A program made the position numbers and the translations under genes. A DNA stretch of 64,000 bases. Origin: Alphaproteobacteria bacterium (GTDB lineage: Bacteria; Pseudomonadota; Alphaproteobacteria; UBA828). The stretch covers positions 3,072,001 through 3,136,000 of the forward strand of contig CBDEFM010000002.1 in NCBI GenBank assembly GCA_965237415.1, given 5' to 3'. This document shows positions 47,926 through 60,491 of this stretch, one piece after another (the first letter of the stretch is position 1; each line of letters begins with the position of its first letter). The notes under the pieces were generated by a model. The model did not search any database, was not told where the DNA came from, and saw only the letters and a program-made list of their open reading frames with translations.

Positions 47926-48244
47926 CCGGCGGTAACCGTTCCTGCGCGGTCGAGTGGAATTGGGAACCGCTGGGGCGAAGCGCAGCAAGGCCTGACCGAC
48001 GCCGCTGGCCAACGACAACGGTGCCCACCAGCGTCGCACCCAGGCAAATGGTCATGCGCTGCTCCAGCTCACGCATCTGGCCTCGCAGCGACGCCTCGGT
48101 CTTCTCAAGGTCGACCTTGGTCGCCAGGGTCTCGCCCGTGCGCTCGGAAAAGGTCTCGACCAAGATCGCGGCCTGCTTCTCGTCGAAGCCGCCTTCGGCG
48201 CGCGGCCGCCGCGCGGCCCTGAGCGTGTCGAACGCCAGCGTCAT
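47852..48244 (-). CDS. DUF1640/CCDC90-like protein (3' end degenerate)
   Basis: MTLAFDTLRAARR...GGFDEKQA...LATKVDL...LEQRMTICLG. Confidence 0.7.
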   Translation of the reverse strand: MTLAFDTLRAARRPRAEGGFDEKQAAILVETFSERTGETLATKVDLEKTEASLRGQMRELEQRMTICLGATLVGTVVVGQRRRSGLAALRPSGSQFHSTAQERLPPARRDEVRFPDACRRPPQHVSACAA

Positions 48245-48479
48245 GCGCTCATCCCGTCGCCGCAGCCGGCGGCGGCGACCATGTGCACCGCCGTCGCCAC
48301 CGTGCCTCCGGCATTCCCGAACTCGGCCATGTCGGTCCTGAGCGCGCGCGGCAAGGACCGTCATCGGCCCGATCAGGCCGGGCGGCGGGATCGAAAACCG
48401 CCTCTCGGCGGGGTGGTTTGATTCCAGCGGCGCGGGCGCCGTCGGCGGGTATGTGTAGGGTTCGCGCGACTCGGGTACG

Positions 48480-48662
48480 CAGGGGTACGCTGGAGTTGGA
48501 ATTCACTCGCTTCCGCAGTGATTACGGCGGGCAATTCAGGGGGCTGAGGAAAGGGGCGGATTCGGAGGCTAAGTCACTGAAAGCAGCGAGAGAACGGAGA
48601 GTGTAGGAAATTTTCTACCCCCAGGCTCTCCTCATTCTGAAGAGGCCTCGTCGGGAGGCCTC
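48480..48662 (+). repeat. 150-bp repeat copy 2 fused at AGGCTCT to a 40-bp copy of the lipoprotein leader
   Basis: 48480-48629 matches 45543-45692; 48623-48662 matches 27438-27477 (36/40). Confidence 0.93.
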
Positions 48663-49045
48663 AGGGCGCGCCGCTCCCAGGATTTACGCCGCCGATCGGC
48701 GAATAAAGTTCCGTGCAGAACCGCAATAAACCCCTTCAACAACGTCGAAATTAGACGTGCCAGCCATACGCGCCGGTTTACCGGCCGGGCTGCGGGGTGC
48801 TTACGGGGCGCCTCGCATGATTCCGGCCGGTTACGCGGTGAAGCCGCCGCATCCTCTCGTGATGACGGCGCGCTTGCCGTTTACGGGGTGTTCGGCGCTG
48901 GGATGTGACGGGGATGCCGCGCCGTAGCACGCTGACCCTATCCGGCCGGGCGGTGGACGCGCTCGCGGTCTCCGAGCGCGACGTCATCGTCTGGGACCGG
49001 GAGCTCGCGGGCTTCGGCGTGCGCGTCTACCCCTCGGGCCGCAAG

Positions 49046-50247
49046 GGAAAGTCTGAACAACCCCATGTTCGCGGTTTCGAGGGGGAGAGGCGGCTTGGAT
49101 GTGAAGCTCGACGATATTGCCGACAGGCCGGGGGCTGCTTTGGTCACGGGATACGGAGCGAACGGGCGATATCCGCGTCGATCCGCCTCCTTCCCCGCCG
49201 TCCCGCCAGCGGCGGGCAGACTACTCCCCTGTCATCCCGTCGCGTAGCGGCCGGCGATCAGCAGATTCGAGAACCCCAGCAGCAACGCGATGCGCTGCCT
49301 GTTCTTTGCCACGCCCCGGTAGCGCACCTTGGCGTAGCCGAAGTGCCGCTTCACGTACAGGAACGGATGCTCAACCTTCGCCCGCACCGACGCCTTGCGC
49401 TTCTCGGCCGCCTCTTCGGCGACGCCCTCGCCCAGCAGCCGGCGCCGCCCCGGCTTCATCGCCACACGCCACTCGACACCGCCGTCCCGGTGCTCGGGAC
49501 GCTTCTCCACTCCCTGGTAGCCTGCGTCGCCCCACGCCGTCGTCTCAGCGCCATGCAGCAGCGCTCCCGCCTGCGTCACGTCGCTTGCGTTGGCCGCCGT
49601 CGTCGTCAAGCTGTGCGCCAGACCCGACCCGGCGTCCACCCCGATGTGCGCCTTCATCCCGAAATACCACTGCTTGCCCTTCTTCGTCTGATGCATCTCA
49701 GGGTCCCGTGCGCGGCGCCGGTTCTTCGTCGACGACGGCGCGTCGATGATGCTCGCGTCAACGATCGTCCCCGTGCGCAGCCGATGGCCGCGCGACGCCA
49801 GGTGCGCATTGATCTCCTCGAACAGACCCTCGCCCAGGCCGTGCTTCTCCAACAGATGCCGGAAGTTCAGGATGGTGGTCTCGTCGGGCAGCGCCTCCGT
49901 CAACCGCAGCCCCACGAAACGCCTCACCGACTCCACCTCGTAGAGAAGGTCCTCCATCCCCGGGTCGCTCAGGTTGTAGAACAACTGCACGCAGTGAACA
50001 CGCAGCATCACCGAAAGCGGGTACGGGCGCCGACCGCGCCCCGCCTTCGCATAGAACGGCTCGATCCGTCGCTCCAGCCGCTCCCAGGGAACCAGCTTGT
50101 CCATCTTCTCAAGGAACAACTCACGCCGCGTCCGGCGCTTCTTCAAGTCGTGCTCCAGTTCCGCAAAGCTTGCCTGTGCCATGGCTCGATCATCCAATCC
50201 GCGACTCCTGCGCAAATTATGGCACACGCAACTTGATCAGACCTTCC
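49046..50247 (-). mobile_element. IS5-family element
   Basis: IRs GGAAAGTCTGAACAA / TTGATCAGACCTTCC; CAAG duplication at 49042-49045 and 50248-50251. Confidence 0.92.
49232..50182 (-). CDS. IS5-family transposase
   Basis: PDETTILNFRHLLE, IVDASII, WYFGMKAHIGVD, GDAGYQG, RAKVEHPF. Confidence 0.95.
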   Translation of the reverse strand: MAQASFAELEHDLKKRRTRRELFLEKMDKLVPWERLERRIEPFYAKAGRGRRPYPLSVMLRVHCVQLFYNLSDPGMEDLLYEVESVRRFVGLRLTEALPDETTILNFRHLLEKHGLGEGLFEEINAHLASRGHRLRTGTIVDASIIDAPSSTKNRRRARDPEMHQTKKGKQWYFGMKAHIGVDAGSGLAHSLTTTAANASDVTQAGALLHGAETTAWGDAGYQGVEKRPEHRDGGVEWRVAMKPGRRRLLGEGVAEEAAEKRKASVRAKVEHPFLYVKRHFGYAKVRYRGVAKNRQRIALLLGFSNLLIAGRYATG

Positions 50248-51330
50248 CAAGGTCTACGTCGTCCAAAGCCGGGCGGGTGGCGGGCCACGCCGCGTCACGC
50301 TCGGCACCCACGGCGAGATCACCGCAACCCAGGCACGCAAACGCGCAGCCCAGGTCATCGACCGCATCAAGCGGGGCGAGGAACCCGCAGCACTCCTGCC
50401 CCAGGCCGGCACCACCGTCGCCGACCTCGCCGAGCGCTACATGAGCGCCCACGTCGCACAGAACTGCAATGCGCACACCGCCGGCATCTACCGGGGCTCG
50501 CTGGAGAACCACATCCTGCCGGCGCTCGGCATGATGCCGCTTGGCCTGGTCGAGCGCGCCCACGTCTCGGCGCTCCACTACCGCCTGCGCGAGACGCCCC
50601 GCGCCGCCAACCGGGCACTGGCGGTCCTCTCCAAGATGTTCTCCCTCGCCGCCGCCTGGGGCCTCGTGCCGGACGGCACCAACCCCTGCCGCGCCGTCCG
50701 CAAATACAAGGAGAGAAAGCGCGAGCGCTTCCTCTCCCGCGAGGAGTACCGCCGCTTAGGCCAGGCCCTGGCTGAAGCGGAGGCCGAGGCGGGGGCGGAT
50801 GTGGAGGGCGCGGTCTCCCCCTACGCCATCGCCGCGCTCCGCCTCCTCATGCTCACCGGCTGCCGCCTGAACGAGATCCTTACGCTGCGCTGGGACGATG
50901 TGGACCGCACCGCAGGCGAGTTCCGGCTGCGCGACGGCAAGACGGGCACCCGCATGGTCCCCCTCACACCCACGGCGGAGGCGGTGCTGGCAGGCATCCG
51001 CCGCACGCCCACAAACCCCTGGGTCATCGTCGGCAAGCAGCCCGGCGCCCACCTCCCCACCATCACCGCCGAGTGGTATCGGCTCCGCGCCCGCGCAGGG
51101 CTCGACGACGTGCGCATCCACGATCTCCGCCACTCATACGCGAGCCGTGCGCTCGCCGCCGGCGAGAGCCTCTCCATGATCGGCAAGCTGCTCGGCCATG
51201 CCGACATCCAGAGCACCGCCCGCTACGCCCACCTCGCGCGCGAGACCGAGAGGGTGTCCGCCGCCAGGGTCGGCGCCAGCATCGGCGCCGACATCGCGTC
51301 GGCGGCCGGGGCCGGGAAGGACGGCGCGTC

Positions 51331-51819
51331 GTGAACTATTCGGCGAGCCAGCCGGCGCGAGGCTCAATTACAGAGTGCGTCGTCGACGCCCTCCCGGCGG
51401 GCCGGGACACGGTGATCTGGGACCGCGCGCTCACCGGCTTCGGCGTCCGCGTCTATCCCTCCGGCGCCAAGGTCTACGTCGTGCAGACCCGGGGCCCCGC
51501 AGGCACGAAGCGCATCACCGTCGGCCGCCACGGCGTCATCGGCGCCGACGAGGCCCGCCGCCGTGCCGCCCTCATCATCGCCCGCGTGCACGCCGGCGAG
51601 GACCTCGCAGAACGCCCGGCGCAGAAACCCGCAGGCCCCACCCTTGCCGCGCTTGCCGAGCGTTACCTGCGCGAGCATGTCGCGGTGCGCTGCAAGCCCT
51701 CCACCGCAGCCCAGTACCGGCTCGCCATCGAGCGCTATATCGTCCCCGCCCTCGGAGAGCGCGCGGTCTCCGAGATCGGGCGCAGCCATGTCGCCGATCT
51801 GCAGCACGCGCTCCGCGAC
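51331..51819 (+). pseudogene. Tyrosine integrase N-terminal fragment (paralogue of 28123-29382)
   Basis: WDRALTGFGVRVYPSG...RYLREHVAVRCKP; catalytic domain lost. Confidence 0.88.
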
Positions 51820-52159
51820 TGCCGGACAATCCGAATTATTGTTTCGTGCCCGCTTACGACGTCGAGGCCGACGTGCAGCAGATCCGACTCGTCATCGAAG
51901 GTCTCTCCGGCCATATCCCGACCGCGCTGGTTGCGCTGGACCTCGACGATGCTCTCTCCATTTGCGACAAGCTTAACCGCAGACTCGGATACGACCGGGA
52001 TGCCTGGACCGCCATGGCAGCCGCGTCCATGCGCGCCGAAGGCGAGGATCCGGACAGCGGCGCCCGCCACTGACGCGACGCCGGCCGCCTGACCGCGCCG
52101 TCGCGCCGTCGCTCGCGCCGGCCCGGCTGCTGCGCAGCCGGCCTGCCGCCCTCTGCGCT

Positions 52160-52699
52160 CAACCCTTGTGCGCCAACCTTGAACTTCGAGGAGAAGGTCC
52201 GGATTGCCGCATGCCCGGCCGCGGCGCGTCCCTGCACGAAGCTGTTGTAGTCGGCGATGTTCGACGCTCGCGCACCGCGCCCCGTCGAGGTGACGAAAAG
52301 GAGGCGGAACTCGTCGCTGGCGCCCAGCCCCGGGGGCGTGAGCGCCCAGCTGCGCGGCACCTCGACGACGTCCTGGGCCGCGGCGGGCGCCGCCAGCGGT
52401 CCCATCGACAGCAGGGCAAGCGCCGCCGCAACGAAGGAAAGGAGCGCGAGCGGGCGCGCCGCCGGGAAGCAGCGGCGTCCCGCACGCGCAGCCGCCCACC
52501 GGCGAGCGGCAGGCCGGCGGATCGGATGGTGGCGGGAAATCGCGGCGAGCGCCGCCGCGGACGCGGTGCCGGCCGGGGCGGGCGGCAATTCCCGACCGCC
52601 CGCATCCGGCCGCCGCGCTCCGTTTCGTCCGAGCGCGAATTCATCGACAATGCCGACCCCGGGCCGGCAACCGGACACATCCGAACTGCGCATCGTCAC
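52160..52699 (-). pseudogene. N-terminus of a secreted surface protein, truncated (start uncertain)
   Basis: Signal peptide ...LAAPAAA|QD then VPRSWALTPPGLGASDEFRLLFVTS...IADYNSFVQ; coding signal is lost near 52160. Confidence 0.55.
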
Positions 52700-52706
52700 C
52701 CCACGT

Positions 52707-52740
52707 ATTGCGCTCGATAACTGTCACTATCGAGCGCAAT
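52707..52740 (+). other. lox-like recombination site 1
   Basis: ATTGCGCTCGATA-ACTGTCAC-TATCGAGCGCAAT: perfect 13-bp arms and an 8-bp asymmetric spacer. Confidence 0.88.
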
Positions 52741-52777
52741 CCGTGGGCTCGGTTTCGGTCTGTGCGGAGGCGCCCTG

Positions 52778-53761
52778 ATGTATCTCGAACCCCCGTTCGA
52801 TGCTTCGGAGGCCCCGCTACCGGACCGCGGACCCACGCTCCCGGAACTGCTCGGACACTTCGTCCGGGGCGCCGGCGGGGCGTTCAGCGATAACACCGAG
52901 CGGGCTGTCCGCTCGGACCTCGCCATCTATGCCGGGTGGTGCCGGGAGCGGGGGCTGAGGGCGCTGCCGGCGACGCCGGAGACGGTCGCGGGCTTCGTCG
53001 ATGCGATGGCCGAGCGGCGCGCGCCGGCCACGGTGCGCCGCTATGTCGTCAGCATCGCCATCGCCCATCGGGCGGTTGGCCGGGAAGAGACGCCCGGGAG
53101 CCCGCTCGTGCGGCTCGCGCTCAAGCGCATGCACCGGCGCAAGGGGCGCCGGCAGGAGCAGGCGCACGGTCTGACCTGGCCGCTGCGCAACCGCCTGATG
53201 GCCGCGGCCGGCGACCGCCCGATCGACGACCGCAACCGCGCGCTGCTCGCCGTCGCCTACGACACACTGCTCCGCCGCGGCGAGCTGGCCTCCCTGCAAG
53301 TGTGCGATCTGCTTGAGGAAATGGGCGGCCACGCCACCCTGCTCGTGCGGCGGTCCAAGACCGACCCCGAGGGAGAAGGCGAGATCGTCTGGGTCGCGCC
53401 CGACAGCCTGCGCCTGGTCAAGGCATGGCTTGAGCGCAGCGGCGTCTCGGACGGGCCGCTGTTCCGCTCGGTCGGCAAGGGCGGGCGGGTCGGCGGCGGG
53501 TTCCACCCCTGCCAGGTGCCGCGCATCTTCAAGGCGATGGCCCGCGAGGCCGGCCTTCCCAGGGCGGTCGTGGAGGGCCTGTCGGGGCACAGCACGCGGG
53601 TCGGCGCCGCCCAGGACATGATCGCCGCCGACCTCGAACTGCCGGCGATCCAGCAGGCAGGGCGGTGGAAGTCCACCGCCATGGTGAACCGCTACGGCGA
53701 GCGCCTGCTCGCCCGGCGCAGCGGCGCGGCGCAGCTCGCCCGCCTGCAGGGTCGCGAATAG
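52778..53761 (+). CDS. Cre-like tyrosine recombinase
   Basis: SDNTERA...WCRERG...APATVRRY N-domain; LLRRGEL, RSKTD, GHSTRVG, GRWKS, RYG (R-K-HxxR-W-Y, with Trp as in Cre). Confidence 0.92.
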   Translation: MYLEPPFDASEAPLPDRGPTLPELLGHFVRGAGGAFSDNTERAVRSDLAIYAGWCRERGLRALPATPETVAGFVDAMAERRAPATVRRYVVSIAIAHRAVGREETPGSPLVRLALKRMHRRKGRRQEQAHGLTWPLRNRLMAAAGDRPIDDRNRALLAVAYDTLLRRGELASLQVCDLLEEMGGHATLLVRRSKTDPEGEGEIVWVAPDSLRLVKAWLERSGVSDGPLFRSVGKGGRVGGGFHPCQVPRIFKAMAREAGLPRAVVEGLSGHSTRVGAAQDMIAADLELPAIQQAGRWKSTAMVNRYGERLLARRSGAAQLARLQGRE

Positions 53762-54068
53762 AGGGAATATGTAATATCGTTCATGCCAATTCGACATTGC
53801 CCGCCTCCCGGGCAGCGGACCGGGGCGGACTGGGACGGCGGTGGATTCCCGGAGCGCAGGCGCCCGGCGGGTCCGGATTCGAAAACGATTATCGAGCGTA
53901 ATAATGTGCGGCGCCCGTGCGCCCGGCATGCTGCCGCTGCGGTCCGCAGGGGGGCTTGCAAACCACCGGAAGTCAGGCTACATAAACCGATCCGAGGCTC
54001 TTCGGCGGCCGACGGTCGTGCCCGGCAAACGGCACGGGGCGTCGCCGGAGATGCGCGGAATTGTAGGG

Positions 54069-54102
54069 ATTACGCTCGATAGTGACAGTTATCGAGCGCA
54101 AT
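54069..54102 (-). other. lox-like recombination site 2 (inverted relative to site 1)
   Basis: ATTACGCTCGATA-GTGACAGT-TATCGAGCGCAAT; the spacer is the reverse complement of the site 1 spacer. Confidence 0.88.
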
Positions 54103-55462
54103 CCGGGATCTGCAATTCCGGGTCCGCGCCGCCCGCCGAGGGGCGTAACCGTCTGATATTCCACACCTGTTCGACGCCGGGCGAGCCCTTCTGCGGCCGG
54201 CCGGCGCTGTTTGCGCCCGATATTCGGCCTGCGCGCCGCGAGGCGCTGCCGGCGAGCCGGATTCCGGGCCCGGCTCGACCTCGCAACCGGCTGTCCGAAG
54301 AGGCTGCCCCGACCGTGTCGAACGGGCCGCCTGGAGAGCGGCGGAGACGCGGGCGCGGCCGGAGACCGCGTCCATCCCCCGGAAGGCGGAACGCCGCGCA
54401 CGGAGGACCGTGCGCGGCGCTGTCCGATGGTCGCGGGTCCGGTCGTGCAGCCCGTCGCCGGGATCCCGCGGCGGATCGCCCCGCCGCCCGGCCGGGCACG
54501 ATCCCTCCGGGAGGGGCGCGAGCCGGTGCGTCCCGCCGCCCGGGGTTCTTTCGCCTGTCCGGCTGCCGTCGTCTGGTGCACTCATCGCCCGGCTCCACGC
54601 GTCTCCACTGGGGCGCGTCCGAAGAGGATGCGCTACGGAGTCAGGTGGGAACGCGGTCTCTCGCGACCAGACGGATTTTCCAATGGGGCCCATTGGAAAT
54701 GGTTATCGACCCTCCCCGCCCCGGCGCGCACCGCCCGCCGGCGGAACCGGCCCAGACAGGGCACCGGGCCTGCCGCCCCGCGTTCTCCTGGTCCGCTCCC
54801 CGTGACTAGCGACCCGGGACCGAAAAAGAAAATGCCGATCGAAACCAAATCCATTCGCAGGCGGCATGCGGCGGCGACGCTGCAGAACCGCCGGCGCTTG
54901 CGGTTCCGGCCGGTCGCAAGCGCTGCGGTCGCGGGGCCGACGACATTGGGCCGGTGGCCCGCCGGCCCGGCCGGCCCGCCAACTCGGCGGCCCGCCCGGC
55001 GGAATGCTCTGCCCCGCCGTTCGCCGCCAGGGGCGCTGACGGCTGATTGAATTCTGCGGATTCCCCGTGGATTCCCGGCTTGCCGGGACGATACCGCCTC
55101 GCCGCCCGCTGCGACGACCGCCAATGCGGGGTTTCCGCACAACCGCCGCCAAGCCGCGGTCGGCGTTCGCGCCCAGGACGGTCAAGTTGTGGGTCAGTGG
55201 GTTTGCATGGGATCCCACGTATCTGCGGTCGGTTCTCGGCCTCGCGCTCGCAGACAAATCTGTCGGCGATCTACGCCGCGAATTCCTTTGCAGCTCCGTC
55301 GAGTGCGTATCGCGCGCTATCGCTTGAAACTTGCTCTTCATTCGGCGACAAGGGGCGGCCATGGCGGGAACGACCGCGAGACTTCCGCCACCACTCGTAC
55401 GCAACGGATTCCATCACCTCGCACCGTCGTCAGAATAACTCAACTCCACCGTGGATGTTCCT

Positions 55463-56737
55463 ATGCCTCCTTTCGACTGCAATCAGAGCAAACCAAAGCT
55501 CCTTGTAATTCTGGGAGCCGGGAGCTCTATCGATTGTGACATGCCGTCCGTTAGCGACATCAACAAGGAAATGAAACTCTGGAGTTGCAAATACCAGACA
55601 TCACTTCCCGACCAGTACGAGATCAACATATTCCAAGAATTGTGGGAAATGGTGAAATGCTACTATGGAACGAATCATTATGGCATTCGCCCAAATTACG
55701 AAATGGTTCTCGGCGAAATGACTGCGTTCGCCAGTTGGGCGTCGCCCTCTCCATTCGGCAATCCGCTGAATAAAGTTGTGAAGGACAGTTCGCCCACCGC
55801 TCCGTTTACATTGCTGCTAGATTGTTCAGATCCCAATCGCGTTCGCAAGGAAATTGTACGTCAACAAACCTTTCTCCTTGAACGATTGGTCGACTATATG
55901 CGCGAGAAGAGCAAGAACTTAAACATCCAAGCCGACTCGTTCTCCGACTACAGGGAGTTTTTTCGAAGGCTCCAGGATCGGTTCCAGCTCGGCGTCTACA
56001 ACTTGAATTACGATACCATGGCCCACACCGCGTGGCCAGAGTCGTTCAACGGATTCGATTGTTCGGGGCACTTCGATCCGTTACGTGTCAGCCGACGACA
56101 TGAGTGGGGATTCGCTTACCACCTTCATGGCAGCGTACATCATTGCATCGAAGACAAAGTAGTGAAGCCCTGGATCATCTGGAAAGAAGATCTTGATGAA
56201 TCATTTGTGGACTCCGGTATTCCGCCCATCGACATGGCGCAGCAGTTCAGGCCGATACCCTTGACCACATTGATCGCGGGCGGATTCAAGCTCGACCAGC
56301 TCCTTGCCGACCCATACCAGACATTCTACTCCGCCCTCATCAGGCATGCGCAGGAGGCCGATTCGATTTTGATTGCAGGATATGGATTTGGCGATCTGCA
56401 TGTGAACAGGGCAATTCAAAACAGATTTGAACGAAGTTACGATGATCGACGTTCGCCACAGGTCGTCGTTTTAGAAAAATCTCGTCCAGAGCGATTTCAC
56501 ACTGGGCGTCTCGAAATCAGCCAGTTTTGGTCTTATGAACTAAAGCATACGTTGAAGACCACCTTCTCTGACGGCAGCGAATATCCATCCGAGAACAGTT
56601 CCACGGTCGAGGACTTTATCGCCAGGCGGGAGTTCGAAACGGATCGCAAGGACCGGGTCGCCATATGGCACGGGGGCTTCCTAGATGCGCTTTCAGCTGT
56701 CGACAAGATCCTCGAGTGGTTGTCGAGGGGACTGTAG
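55463..56737 (+). CDS. SIR2-like (SIR2_2) domain protein, probable defence NADase
   Basis: VILGAGSS, YNLNYD, YHLHGSV, IAGYGFGDLHVN; lower GC than flanks. Confidence 0.82.
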   Translation: MPPFDCNQSKPKLLVILGAGSSIDCDMPSVSDINKEMKLWSCKYQTSLPDQYEINIFQELWEMVKCYYGTNHYGIRPNYEMVLGEMTAFASWASPSPFGNPLNKVVKDSSPTAPFTLLLDCSDPNRVRKEIVRQQTFLLERLVDYMREKSKNLNIQADSFSDYREFFRRLQDRFQLGVYNLNYDTMAHTAWPESFNGFDCSGHFDPLRVSRRHEWGFAYHLHGSVHHCIEDKVVKPWIIWKEDLDESFVDSGIPPIDMAQQFRPIPLTTLIAGGFKLDQLLADPYQTFYSALIRHAQEADSILIAGYGFGDLHVNRAIQNRFERSYDDRRSPQVVVLEKSRPERFHTGRLEISQFWSYELKHTLKTTFSDGSEYPSENSSTVEDFIARREFETDRKDRVAIWHGGFLDALSAVDKILEWLSRGL

Positions 56738-57107
56738 CGTCGGCCCGCCTTGAATCGGCGCGTCCGATCGATGCAGTCCGGATCCGAGACAGCACGGGGC
56801 GGGTTGCCCGGTCAAGCGCCAAAGATGGCCGGCCGGAGCTACGTTGGGCTTCGAGGCTAAATGGGAAGCGCCTGCTGCCCGTCCGAGGGTGCGAACAGGC
56901 AGATCGTGGGCCTGAAGGATTCCAGGCAAACGGACTAACAGATCGCGTGATCCGGATACCCCGCCGTCCATGGGACCCGGGACGATCTCGTTCCCGCACT
57001 GCCGGACCGGATATCCACCTCCTGGCGCCCCCATGCAGGCCGTGCGGTCCGGCGTCTCCCGCTGAGCGTCGCGACCGTCGGGACCGGCCCAACGACCGGG
57101 ACGCTCA

Positions 57108-58259
57108 CTATTCCCCGCGAAAGCCGTAACGCGGGAATTCCACCGTCCTGACCTCCCTGAAGGGGTTGTTTTCTTTCAGCGCCCTATCAAGCTCTTCTTC
57201 GTATCTCCAGGGATGTTCGATATAGCACCACTCAACTGAGTACCAACCGCCTTCCTCCGGACAGAAGGATGCCCCGACGCATTTCGGAACTTTCAGGTCG
57301 TACTTGCAGGCAAGCGTCAAGTTCATCAGCCCCTGTTTCCTGACTTCGACCACATCTTCGGTCAGAGGTATGAAAACGAATCCGCAATCCGTACGCGGAC
57401 TGGCCATACGGTAAGGCAATGCGAATTCGTCCGATCTGCATTTTTCCATAGACAGGCGGAACCGCGTCTTAAACTCCCTCAACTCGTTTCTCTTCAGTTT
57501 CGCCAGTTCCTTCAGGATGGCGTAGTACTCCGTAGCGTGCCCGTCCGTCGTCACCCGTTCCGCAAACTGCTTGACGATTCCCGACATGTCCCACTCATCG
57601 GCGCGGTGTTCCAACTCCGTCAGGACATCCATGAACGCCGGTTCCGGCCTGCTGTCCGCATCGCCTGTCAGGTATTGTCCGACAAGCGCTGGTTCCGGCA
57701 CCGACGAGACGGCATCGTCCCATTTTTCGATCAACTCCTGACGAAACGCCAGATACTCGGACAGCTCGAACGGCGTCAGGACTGTACGGACGACACCGAG
57801 ATAATCATGCGCCGCAATGACGTGTATCGTTCCGGCAGTACGGCTGAGGTGGAACTTCTTCCTGCGGCAGGCCTCGGGAAGCCGGTCGTTGCCGAGATAA
57901 CATATCACCCTATGCAGGCCCGCAATGGCGTCACTTCTTAGCTTGAATTGGTGACCTCTATGGTTCCGGAGCAGAATGTTTCGGTGAACGTCCAGGTACT
58001 TCATGGAATCTCGAATTTGTTTCGTGCCGACACCGATAACCTTCTTTTCGAACCACCTGGCCTCTCTGTCCGGTGATGTTTTGCCGATCTTCTCGCGTTC
58101 CTTCAGTTGAAAGAGGACGAGCATATCGTCAAGCCAAATGATGCTGTCGGCCAGCTCCAGCTCGGTCGACGGGCTCGGACGAAAGGTGTTCGTCGAGTAG
58201 GTGAATTCCTCGAAAAAGAAGTGCTCGTTGAGACTTGCTATGTCGCCCTCGAACGTCAT
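57108..58259 (-). CDS. Hypothetical protein with NERD/PD-(D/E)XK-like N-terminus
   Basis: ELADSIIWLDDMLVLFQLKER...KQI; lower GC than flanks. Confidence 0.7.
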   Translation of the reverse strand: MTFEGDIASLNEHFFFEEFTYSTNTFRPSPSTELELADSIIWLDDMLVLFQLKEREKIGKTSPDREARWFEKKVIGVGTKQIRDSMKYLDVHRNILLRNHRGHQFKLRSDAIAGLHRVICYLGNDRLPEACRRKKFHLSRTAGTIHVIAAHDYLGVVRTVLTPFELSEYLAFRQELIEKWDDAVSSVPEPALVGQYLTGDADSRPEPAFMDVLTELEHRADEWDMSGIVKQFAERVTTDGHATEYYAILKELAKLKRNELREFKTRFRLSMEKCRSDEFALPYRMASPRTDCGFVFIPLTEDVVEVRKQGLMNLTLACKYDLKVPKCVGASFCPEEGGWYSVEWCYIEHPWRYEEELDRALKENNPFREVRTVEFPRYGFRGE

Positions 58260-58394
58260 CTCGTTGCGTCCCGTTTCGTCCCGAGCATGGCCGGTTCCAC
58301 GTCCCGGCAATGATCCCCGCCGAACCGCCCCGGGTTTCCCGCAGGCATTCCGGTTGGGGTCATGCGTTCATAGTGAAGTTTTGGCCGGCTGCAC

Positions 58395-58690
58395 AGCGAT
58401 TTGCCATCGACCGCGCGGCGCGCCGGGTGACCGCCGCAGAGCGGGCGATGCGGCTCACCGCCATCGAGTACAGACTCCTGCACACGCTCTCGCTCGACGC
58501 CGGCTGAGCGTCGGCCTCCGAGACCCTCCGGCGCCGGGTGTGGAGCGAACGGGGCGGCGCCGACCCGCAGACCGTGCGCAACGCCGTCCGCAAGCTCCGC
58601 CGCAAGATCGGCGACGACGCCGGGAACCCGAAATACATCCTCGGCGAGCGCGGCCTCGATTGCCGCATGCCCGGCCCGGAGGACGCGTGA
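58395..58690 (+). pseudogene. OmpR-type winged-helix response-regulator fragment
   Basis: RLTAIEYRLL...*...LRRRVW...VRKLRRKIGDDAGNPKYI...RG with an internal stop. Confidence 0.75.
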
Positions 58691-58955
58691 GGCCGGAAGC
58701 GGGAGGGACCGCCGCGGCGTCCCCGCACCAGCGCCGGCGCACGGTGGCGCCCTCCACGGCGTCAGGTCCTGGACTTCCGACGACAACCACGCGATTTCGC
58801 GCGCTTGGGCGACCGGCGCCCCCGCGACGTGGATGCCCGGCCGGAGATCCTTCGGGATCCACGGCCAACCGGAAAACGCCTGCTGTCCGTCCGAGGGTAC
58901 GAACAGGCGGATCTTGCGGGTTTGCGGCGGGCCGAACGAACCGTAGGCTGTCCGA

Positions 58956-60491
58956 ATGGAGGATACGCAGCCGCAGCAGGGCGCCTGGACCATGCGACTG
59001 ATCGAGGGCCGGCAAGCCGATGCCGAGCTTGAGAATGTGGAAAGGGTGGAAGGCCTTGAGGCCGCCCCCGCCACGTTTCCCCTGGCGGATCTATCGCCCG
59101 TCGATTTCGAGCGGCTGAACTACGCCCTGTTCAAGAGCTCCTCGCCTCCCGGCGAACGTCGGATTTGGGACGACGCCGCTCTCATGCTGACCGGCGCCGA
59201 TGCAGGGCGGGACATCCTGCTGCTGGGAGGCGGCGCCGCACCGGGAGTCGTCCAATGCAAGAGACTGGGCGCTGCCATGGCGCGCCCTGCGGTTCTTCGC
59301 GAACTCTTCAAGTGCATTCTCTTCTGCACGCTCGACGCCTCATTGCCGCCGCTTTCCCCGCACGCGCATTACTTTCTTTCCCTGGCAAGGGATCCTGCCG
59401 GTACCGTCGTGGATTTCTTCGCGCAACCTTCGCAGTTCCTGAGTTCGCATCCATCGGACGTCTCCGAGGCGGTAAGAGACACGCTCAAATCGTATGGCTC
59501 ACTTCATGCGCTGGACTTCGACGACGCCTTAACCACCGTTCATCGGTATCTGCGATCGATGACTCTCCATCTGCTCAGACCGGTCGACTTGTATTTCTGG
59601 ATAGCTCAGGAACCGGACATCGCCAGGCGCTTCTTTCGACACCGCGTTGTTGTCGACAACGCTCCCGTCATGGACGAATTGGCCGCATTGCGCGGGAGCT
59701 TGGACGAAGTCGCTCGACAAACGAAAGGTATCTCCGCGATCACGGACGACGATGTGAAAATCATCAAGGACTACATCGATGGCGTTCCCGAATCGCACCG
59801 AACCTCGCTGGGCATTGCCTCCCTGTTCGGATTTCCGAGAGAAATGTTCGCCGGGGAAGAAAACTTCCGAAAACACCTGGAATCACTGGTGCGCGCACTC
59901 CAGGTCCTCCACACGGCTTACATCAATTGGATGAACTCCCGGGCCCAGGAGGAGGCGGCGCGAATTTGCGACATTCCGGAGATCCGGTTGACCGTTCATC
60001 CCTTCGCCCTGCAAATTGCCTCCGGCTACATGGGAACGCTGGCCGCAGACATCTCGCTTCGATCCCTGAGCGGCGAAGTGATGAGCTCGATCATCGAGAA
60101 AGCGACCAAGCGAAAGGCGCTTAGCGACGATGATGAAAGACTTGCGCACGTTTGCGAGCGCGTACTCGAACAGGGACGCCGACATCTTGCGCACGATTAC
60201 AGCCAGCTCGCCGGAGATGACGAACTGGTTGCGTTCAAGCGCCAGTTCTTCGACCGTCTCATGGCCGAAATTCCCGACAGGACAACACTGGAAGACGTCG
60301 TGCAAGACGGCAGGCGGAAACTGGAGCCGTACCTGAAGCAAGCGTCGTCGGAACTTCGGTCATTGGGGGGCTTTCGCCCAAGCGTGTTCCTGGCGGGAAC
60401 GAGCGGACTGGACAGCGACATCGCGATCGCGAAGATGGCGGACACCGCGCGGACATTGGACGGGCTTGGCGGTCGAGACGACGGAGGCTGA
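58956..60491 (+). CDS. Protein with N-terminal Mrr-like restriction endonuclease domain
   Basis: LSPVDFERL...GADAGRDI...VVQCKR. Confidence 0.72.
   Translation: MEDTQPQQGAWTMRLIEGRQADAELENVERVEGLEAAPATFPLADLSPVDFERLNYALFKSSSPPGERRIWDDAALMLTGADAGRDILLLGGGAAPGVVQCKRLGAAMARPAVLRELFKCILFCTLDASLPPLSPHAHYFLSLARDPAGTVVDFFAQPSQFLSSHPSDVSEAVRDTLKSYGSLHALDFDDALTTVHRYLRSMTLHLLRPVDLYFWIAQEPDIARRFFRHRVVVDNAPVMDELAALRGSLDEVARQTKGISAITDDDVKIIKDYIDGVPESHRTSLGIASLFGFPREMFAGEENFRKHLESLVRALQVLHTAYINWMNSRAQEEAARICDIPEIRLTVHPFALQIASGYMGTLAADISLRSLSGEVMSSIIEKATKRKALSDDDERLAHVCERVLEQGRRHLAHDYSQLAGDDELVAFKRQFFDRLMAEIPDRTTLEDVVQDGRRKLEPYLKQASSELRSLGGFRPSVFLAGTSGLDSDIAIAKMADTARTLDGLGGRDDGG

Follow-up and report, generated by a model that had tools for sequence, protein, structure and literature searches.

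A gene for a Cre-family tyrosine recombinase lies between two inverted lox-like sites at positions 52707–54102 of the DNA analysed here, a stretch of 64,000 nucleotides (nt) from Alphaproteobacteria bacterium (UBA828; assembly GCA_965237415.1, contig CBDEFM010000002.1, positions 3,072,001–3,136,000) that we refer to as the window. With moderate confidence we interpret this arrangement, which recurs in related genomes, as a self-contained and self-encoded inversion switch with outward promoters beside surface-protein genes. The window cassette is located on a 4.03-Mb contig of a 4.75-Mb genome assembly, the contigs of which are denoted C1 and C2 below.

Site 1 (52707–52740) consists of two 13-nt arms, ATTGCGCTCGATA and TATCGAGCGCAAT, forming a perfect palindrome around the 8-nt spacer ACTGTCAC, whose central six bases are CTGTCA. 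It ends 37 nt before the ATG at 52778, a position and architecture repeated in related cassettes, and the intact gene that follows on the plus strand (52778–53761) encodes a protein of 327 amino acids (aa). Site 2 (54069–54102) starts 307 nt past the stop codon, is inverted with respect to site 1 and has a single mismatch in its inner arm; its spacer GTGACAGT is the exact reverse complement of that of site 1. Between the gene and site 2, about 170 nt from the latter, a lone 13-nt arm or half-site, TATCGAGCGTAAT, is present on the plus strand (53890–53902), and directly before site 2 the hexamer TTGTAG (54061–54066, plus strand) is the degenerate counterpart of a TTGACA motif, a candidate −35 element, found in the relatives. 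Coordinates and sequences of the two sites and of the lone arm had been given in the initial annotation and all proved correct. The cassette thus comprises a 34-bp target of 13-nt inverted arms and an asymmetric 8-nt spacer near the gene, and a segment bounded by inverted sites.

The site repeats in the window exceed chance. A repeat search recovers the inverted pair as 39 nt with 95% complementarity. Allowing up to two mismatches, the 13-nt arm occurs nine times in the window, five times inside the cassette, where 1.35 copies are expected, and none of 100 shuffled sequences reached nine. Exact copies number seven in the whole 4.75-Mb genome and are confined to the window cassette and to a second cassette, module 2, described below, while a control pattern, the arm read backwards, has no match anywhere in the genome.

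The protein carries Phage_integrase (PF00589, E = 9e-16) as its sole Pfam domain. Residues 35–315 align with Cre 17–313 in the crystal-structure chains (E = 2.6e-26), covering both domains, and the 17 best hits of the structure-chain search are all Cre or Cre-derived, with XerD following at 1e-06. Identity is 29.9% to P1 Cre and 28.2% to Dre (tblastn). When aligned, P1 Cre and eight family members all retain R173, K201, H289, R292, W315 and Y324 (Cre numbering); the eight are the window protein, three family proteins from this and other genomes, three further relatives and one plasmid homologue. Both the structure-chain alignment and Pfam indicate the two-domain architecture of Cre without a separate arm-binding domain. 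NCBIfam models for XerC/XerD or integron integrases score only 22–32 bits against cut-offs of 220–371. The protein is therefore what had been surmised from its R-K-HxxR-W-Y set, a Cre-like enzyme lacking an arm-binding domain, and at the identities given above it stands as a Cre-type enzyme with a 13-8-13 target of its own.

The window's genome contains four full-length copies of the cassette. Module 2 lies about 103–104 kb upstream of the window cassette, on the minus strand (C2:3020663–3022080, gene C2:3021029–3022009; about 8664–10081 of L009 and L035:165–8267, L-numbers being the labels of extracted cassette loci). It is in the opposite orientation to the window cassette and has identical arms and an intact TTGACA; its recombinase is 80% identical to that of the window in protein and 83% in DNA between site 1 and the gene end. 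Its spacers are ACTGTCGT paired with ACGACAGT. Since the central spacers of the two cassettes differ by one base (CTGTCA vs CTGTCG), a rare 103-kb inversion between them is conceivable. The third and fourth cassettes (C2:2142435–2143813, L031/L033; C1:297036–298406, L032/L034) encode recombinases 69% and 66% identical to that of the window and have different, perfectly palindromic arms, TTGACTCGCGATA and TTGGCTCGCGATA, with the shared spacer centre CTGTTG. A scan of one genome per species added 18 loci at 71–80% identity from alphaproteobacterial metagenome-assembled genomes (MAGs), six of them from a single MAG, and a scan of metagenomes yielded 11 more. Several of the comparisons below draw on a table of 27 cassettes, and both sites are on the contig in 25 cassettes.

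In all 25 of these, the six bases at the centre of the site 1 spacer reappear in site 2 as their exact reverse complement, even though eight variants occur among them (CTGTCA, CTGTCG, CTGTTG, CTATTA, CTATCG, CTATTG, CTCTTA and CTCTCA). Spacer positions 1 and 8 are free and often differ between partner sites. In Cre/loxP, strand exchange proceeds with a 6-bp stagger, and free outer positions combined with a matched central six are what a Cre-type stagger of this length would lead one to expect. The core GATA-N8-TATC is confined to the predicted sites in every ~7-kb locus examined. The lone arm is kept at the same place in 18 aligned cassettes, and in the 69% and 66% identical cassettes of the window's genome it reads TATCGCGAGTCAA and TATCGCGAGCCAA, showing the same single-base change as the site arms of the respective cassette. 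Because it changes along with the site arms, the lone arm appears to be a real half-site rather than a relic, and it probably serves as an accessory recombinase-binding site or operator. As judged by this covariation, the sites are real and paired with each other.

Evidence that such a segment has indeed been turned comes from two paralogous loci of one MAG, L010 and L012. Their segment interiors are 96.7% identical, while the flanks are swapped and inverted, with flank identities across the inversion of 80.9% and 94.6%. The flank-side arms have remained with the flanks and the inner arms with the segment, which is exactly the distribution predicted by a crossover inside the spacer. In accordance, the flanking proteins of the two loci are 70% identical over 282 aa (E = 3e-118) and are found on opposite sides of the cassette, one upstream and divergent from the recombinase gene, the other downstream and in the same direction. 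At L010:2692–2772 and L012:2883–2963, a further lox-like site lies 13 nt beyond the canonical site 1, so that both loci have three sites in total; it is this outer site that pairs with site 2 in the lineage and that the natural inversion used. A second, weaker case is provided by L022, whose left flank corresponds to the reversed right flank of L025 (71.9% over ~215 nt). Comparison of the loci thus establishes membership in the Cre family, real and paired sites, and one natural inversion between paralogous loci. The initial annotation had argued from the inverted sites that the segment flips its own gene rather than resolving dimers; the covariation of the spacers in 25 of 25 cassettes, together with this inverted pair of loci, bears the argument out as far as sequences allow.

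What the inversion might serve is suggested by the stretch of ~300 nt from the stop codon to site 2, a conserved sequence in which AT-rich islands interrupt DNA of ~70% G+C. In 22 of the 27 cassettes, with both arm-specificity groups represented, TTGACA precedes the inner arm of site 2 by 1–2 nt; the window cassette is among the five that lack it. A spacing of 17 nt from this motif leads to a putative −10 element coinciding with lox spacer positions 3–8 (consensus RAYAGY), and in L024 the combination TTGACA-17-AATAGT scores 10/12 in a consensus scan. The lone arm can be read in a similar way as the spacer of a promoter, with TTCACA-17-AATAAT (10/12) in module 2 and ATCACA-16-AATAAT (9/12) in L024, and module 2 has a third promoter match just past the stop codon. 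By the same criteria, the 3′ regions of the 27 cassettes contain 16 matches on the sense strand vs three on the antisense strand. Spacer position 8 differs between the two sides in ten cassettes, which are close kin, with T towards the surface-protein gene in nine of them, the tenth having no assigned neighbour.

In the survey of neighbouring genes, which covered 20 loci, an open frame of at least 744 aa reads away from site 1 in 12. The six such frames that were scanned all contain Calx-beta, cadherin-like, fn3, SWM_repeat or He_PIG domains. Module 2 adjoins a 2701-aa open frame with fn3, SWM_repeat and Calx-beta domains that starts beside site 1, and beside the copy on C1 the frame exceeds 2562 aa and has adhesin-type domains. 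The neighbours in L010 and L012 are shorter relatives of the giant proteins and share their N-terminal region. In L015 and L024 the neighbours are genes whose products resemble lipoproteins, a run of glycines coming after a cysteine, and in L022 a TbpB-like lipoprotein gene is present on its other side. Homology between the L022 and L015 lipoproteins was considered and found unsupported (E = 0.16). Most relatives, as well as two other cassettes of the window's genome, accordingly have a surface-structure gene next to them. As a separate observation, many of the giant proteins and autotransporters (for example L035:465–1064, L014, L016, L013, L010, L012) have in common a domain of about 200 aa at the N-terminus, past the signal peptide, with the recurring motifs FTTG...GY.L, NTTY and GW.IA; this domain has no match in Pfam, and its best score in the ESM Atlas, 0.86, is below the useful range.

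We propose the following model. The recombinase would bind the 13-nt arms of both inverted 34-bp sites and exchange strands within the six bases in the middle of the 8-nt spacer, thereby flipping the 1.4-kb segment with its own gene included. The promoter-like elements in the 300 nt past the gene would point outward through site 2. The −35 and −10 elements of one such promoter would be spaced by the lone arm, and the other would be composed of TTGACA as −35, the inner arm as spacer and lox spacer positions 3–8 as −10. Because these promoters point out through site 2, flipping would direct transcription to one flank or the other. The site 2 end facing the giant gene, as in L012 and L022, would correspond to the on state, and the majority orientation to off. 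Recombinase bound at the inner arm and the lone arm might in addition mask or damp the outward promoters. The cassette would in this way act as a phase-variation switch for a costly surface protein, be it of the adhesin type, an autotransporter or a lipoprotein. We infer the enzymatic activity, the promoters and the on/off logic from the sequences compared.

A more elaborate version of this model can be put forward only tentatively. Here the lox site itself might double as a promoter that inversion rebuilds at either end, with the base at spacer position 8 setting its strength and the recombinase repressing it. Position 8, the last and most critical base of the −10 element, would lie outside the 6-bp crossover and so might stay with the flank; T would possibly face the surface-protein gene and C the other side, and the lone-arm promoter could be repressed as well. 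On the same speculative reading, the family might offer eight naturally occurring lox spacers that are incompatible with one another, along with at least two arm specificities.

A number of findings weigh against a regulatory switch. No convincing promoter for the recombinase gene was seen by eye in or around site 1, nor did the promoter scan return one there. In the window cassette, the scan gave no match on the sense strand. The putative −10 element in the lox spacer is poor and passes in one of 27 cassettes, and the lone-arm promoter passes in eight of 27. Since the related cassettes are kin, all such counts overstate independence. The cassette at C2:2142580 has a TetR regulator gene and not a surface-protein gene beside site 1, and in the L041 group there is no giant gene within about 2 kb. 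The conserved block in the right flank, described below, may be a promoter or leader reading towards the cassette, or else the target of an outward promoter. Finally, among assembled contigs from two metagenome runs of one study, no strand-changing joint was detected at the window locus (52000–55000), a result that is silent on a minority orientation, as assembled contigs drop minority forms. Contigs bridge site 1 in the reference orientation (X1, 52537–52990; X2, 52174–53006) and likewise site 2 (X1, 53725–55000; X2, 53725–54401). A joint between 52395 and 54118 that skips 1722 was discounted, its shorter side being 21 letters long and the joint not located at the sites. With regard to the recombinase gene, translational coupling of an upstream frame to its ATG, suggested by TGATG in the window, was dropped as it is not conserved in the alignment.

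The alternative that best survives these data is that the segment does invert but regulates nothing. It would be a selfish or neutral self-flipping module, or the remnant of a plasmid-resolution system with a second site, and its proximity to surface genes would reflect co-duplication with those fast-evolving genes. Such a module would fit the several copies per genome (four here, six loci in one MAG), the homology on the left that usually stops at site 1, the copy adjoining a TetR gene, the weak promoter matches in most cassettes, and the window copy, whose recombinase gene and sites are intact despite the destruction of the neighbouring gene. However, we think it unlikely in view of the TTGACA motif, which in 22 of 27 cassettes and across two arm-specificity groups is held at a fixed distance from the lox spacer, and of the lone arm, which is conserved, covaries with the site arms and is surrounded by AT-rich hexamers in ~70% G+C DNA. 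A giant secreted-protein gene, moreover, adjoins the cassette in most loci, and the cassettes without TTGACA, few as they are, are those without an intact neighbour.

A lower probability still attaches to a mobile element that uses the 34-bp sites as terminal inverted repeats and moves in the manner of an insertion sequence (IS), or is swapped between loci by double crossover. The family is multi-copy and patchy, with a homologue at E ≤ 1e-60 in one of 400 genomes of the class; the two cassettes with identical arms in the window's genome have just 83% DNA identity, about as far apart as those of other taxa; and the neighbouring genes are of unrelated types (adhesins, lipoproteins, TetR). Yet there is no consistent target-site duplication, a direct repeat of at least 3 nt being found at the junctions in three of 23 cases, two of which are the palindrome CCGG, and both flanks show conservation across many loci. 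By the normal Cre-type reaction, inverted sites whose spacers are not palindromic do not support excision, and the mechanism of these enzymes would thus preclude excision of the segment. As for a plasmid, phage or island system of the ordinary kind, serving dimer resolution or integration, with an incidental second site, Cre-like genes with an upstream site are indeed common on alphaproteobacterial plasmids (406 records; the one examined has a single site) and integrase and IS remnants occur near the window cassette, but the 4.03-Mb contig, the inverted two-site layout with covarying spacers in 25 of 25 cassettes, the natural inversion product and the absence of plasmid matches above 60% identity make it very improbable.

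The switch that we favour is not best illustrated by the window copy, for which module 2 is the better exemplar. Besides the change of TTGACA to TTGTAG, the lone-arm promoter has TTCGAA at −35 (3/6). On the far side of site 1, the remnant of the 5′ end of a giant surface-protein gene (52130–52699, minus strand, within the open reading frame (ORF) 51854–52699) reads away from the site. It consists of a signal-peptide-like stretch and ~100 aa of the N-terminal domain, after which the coding signal is lost. Over the residues encoded by 52130–52453, it shares 46% identity (E = 5e-17) with the N-terminal end of another open frame of the genome, 4684 aa in length; ORF 51854–52699 itself has no Pfam match and failed the codon-position GC filter. 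Further out, Pfam matches identify a fragment of a phage-integrase-family gene (50441–51334) and a gene for an IS5-type DDE transposase (49232–50227, minus strand), and these may have destroyed the giant gene. From its sequence, the window cassette looks partly decayed, with recombinase gene and sites intact; it may retain the ability to flip, but there is probably nothing left that it controls.

To the right of site 2, a non-coding flank (54103–54870) is conserved at the nucleotide level among cassettes. In the relatives it extends over about 0.5–1.3 kb without coding signal, and in both inverted loci it is found on the other side. It contains a sequence resembling a half-site, TTTGCGCCCGATA (54210–54222), which matches the site arm in 10 of 13 bases, 108 nt outside site 2; the relatives keep ...CCCGATA at this position, and TTTGCGCCCGATA may be a further accessory half-site. 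The flank also has a GC-rich, hairpin-like palindrome of 13-8-13 form and a block of ~90 nt (54612–54700) that recurs in 12 related loci. An extra copy of the block (C2:1540298–1540386, L052:5299–5387) lies between the start of a gene for a small cysteine-rich secreted protein and an IS1595-family transposase gene. Searches of Rfam returned no family at E ≤ 1 for window positions 48000–60000 or at E ≤ 0.1 for eight related loci, and there are no tRNA genes in the window. The RNAalifold consensus of the flank is weak (−9.95 kcal/mol with 23 pairs on the outward strand, −5.42 with nine pairs on the other). Open frames in the right flanks were rejected as genes in 12 of 15 cases, in which they lack a Pfam match and look like high-GC artefacts; frames with a relevant Pfam match are the SIR2_2 gene of the window and the TbpB-like lipoprotein gene of L022. 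The former is an ORF of 428 aa (55451–56737; SIR2_2, Pfam E = 1.7e-09) in a patch of ~55% G+C within ~70% G+C DNA and is a candidate defence gene on acquired DNA. At the corresponding position, module 2 has a lower-GC ORF of 416 aa.

Relatives of the recombinase are numerous in the databases: of 8000 candidates scored, at least 2920 proteins reach E ≤ 1e-20. Identity in the best 120 is 74–98% and their length 327–336 aa, and the only name the relatives bear is ‘tyrosine-type recombinase/integrase’. Their distribution is patchy: the 400 other genomes in which a single homologue at E ≤ 1e-60 was found had been drawn evenly from the class, and the three same-family genomes in this sample have no match at that threshold. 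The 406 plasmid records at E ≤ 1e-20 are all below 60% identity, the plasmid relatives reaching at most 50%. On p1METDI of Methylorubrum extorquens DM4, the relative (48.5% identity) has a single site 38 nt before the gene, and no partner site is present within 4 kb of the gene; a second plasmid locus, from Lichenicola, has one core-motif match only and arms that match poorly. Because the p1METDI relative has a single site, the inverted pair would be a derived layout, and the cassette looks like a plasmid-type system that has gained a second, inverted site. Searches revealed no lox-like pair at L029, a 64% identical homologue in another genome, and L044–L046 are N-terminally shortened copies without sites. 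L050 (150–3651) and L027 have recombinase genes that lack the 5′ end, and a 1000-aa open frame runs into that of L050, which suggests that cassettes decay by rearrangement with the neighbouring giant gene.

It is informative to compare the cassette with known site-specific systems, from which it differs in each case in some respect. The Cre-type systems, including Cre/loxP, Dre/rox, SCre/SloxP, VCre/VloxP and the tyrosine recombinases of PMC10250229, share with it the R-K-H-R-W-Y residues and the lack of an arm-binding domain. They also share the 34-bp 13-8-13 target beside the gene and the GATA at the inner arm end, which is noted in PMC10250229 for active sites. The initial annotation had seen a resemblance to both SloxP and VloxP. 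The likeness to SloxP holds in part: the spacer of SloxM1, printed in PMC3082901 as ...CCGATA ACTGTAAT TATCGG..., begins with ACTGT like that of the window site. The comparison with published catalogues that had been called for was carried out with four site strings of 10–12 nt, all of them absent from the supplement of PMC10250229, whose Table S2 lists predicted Cre-type targets in 482 rows; as far as these strings show, the arms of the window sites are unlike the catalogued half-sites. The layout differs as well. Known Cre-type systems have one site, are found on phages or plasmids and serve cyclisation or dimer resolution, whereas here two inverted sites and a lone half-site are arranged around a chromosomal gene. 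In the literature searched, we found no description of a Cre-family recombinase within its own invertible cassette.

The layout has closer counterparts elsewhere. The invertible Hin/hix segment carries an outward promoter for a surface-structure gene, and Hin itself, a serine invertase, depends on an enhancer and Fis. In common with Hin/hix of Salmonella, the cassette would combine a recombinase inside the segment with an outward promoter for a surface structure, the promoter here being a predicted one. That the hin gene lies within its own invertible segment is stated in PMC5903667. The enzymes are unlike each other, a serine invertase in one case and a tyrosine recombinase of the Cre family in the other. 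Elements of the fimS type have short inverted repeats, and their recombinase genes lie outside. There, a FimB/FimE-like tyrosine recombinase flips a promoter element beside an adhesin or autotransporter gene, as we propose for the cassette; fimS measures ~300 bp and ipuS is the switch of the UpaE autotransporter, according to PMC6083910. The enzymes of fimS are integrase-like, in contrast to the Cre-like enzyme, full lox-type palindromes and internal gene of the cassette. In the yeast 2-micron plasmid, the Flp gene lies between inverted FRT targets and inversion serves copy-number amplification. Compared by layout alone, this too is a tyrosine recombinase gene between inverted 13-8-13 targets, a structure given for FRT in PMC3082901, on a eukaryotic plasmid. 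For the lone arm, TnpI/IRS of Tn4430 may offer the best analogy. In this transposon resolution system, a tyrosine recombinase acts at a core site, and extra single binding motifs steer the reaction. Its accessory repeats are direct and stand beside the core, whereas the lone arm is ~170 nt away from site 2. Taken together, the cassette resembles Cre-type systems in its chemistry, Hin and Flp/FRT in its layout and the fimS/ipuS adhesin switches in its role.

Cre-type recombinases are housekeeping enzymes of phages and plasmids and tools of the laboratory. These uncultured Alphaproteobacteria seem to have turned Cre chemistry to another use, as a compact flip switch that encodes its own recombinase and recurs beside giant adhesin genes. 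One survey reports an inversion signature in none of four alphaproteobacterial samples (PMC5903667), and the DeepInverton model was trained only on elements under 300 bases (PMC11602134). If active, the cassettes would provide genome engineering with ready pairs of recombinase and target, naturally heterospecific in their spacers and diverged in their arms, and would offer a testable case of a recombination site that doubles as promoter or operator. They would, moreover, extend phase variation by promoter inversion to a new enzyme family and to environmental bacteria.

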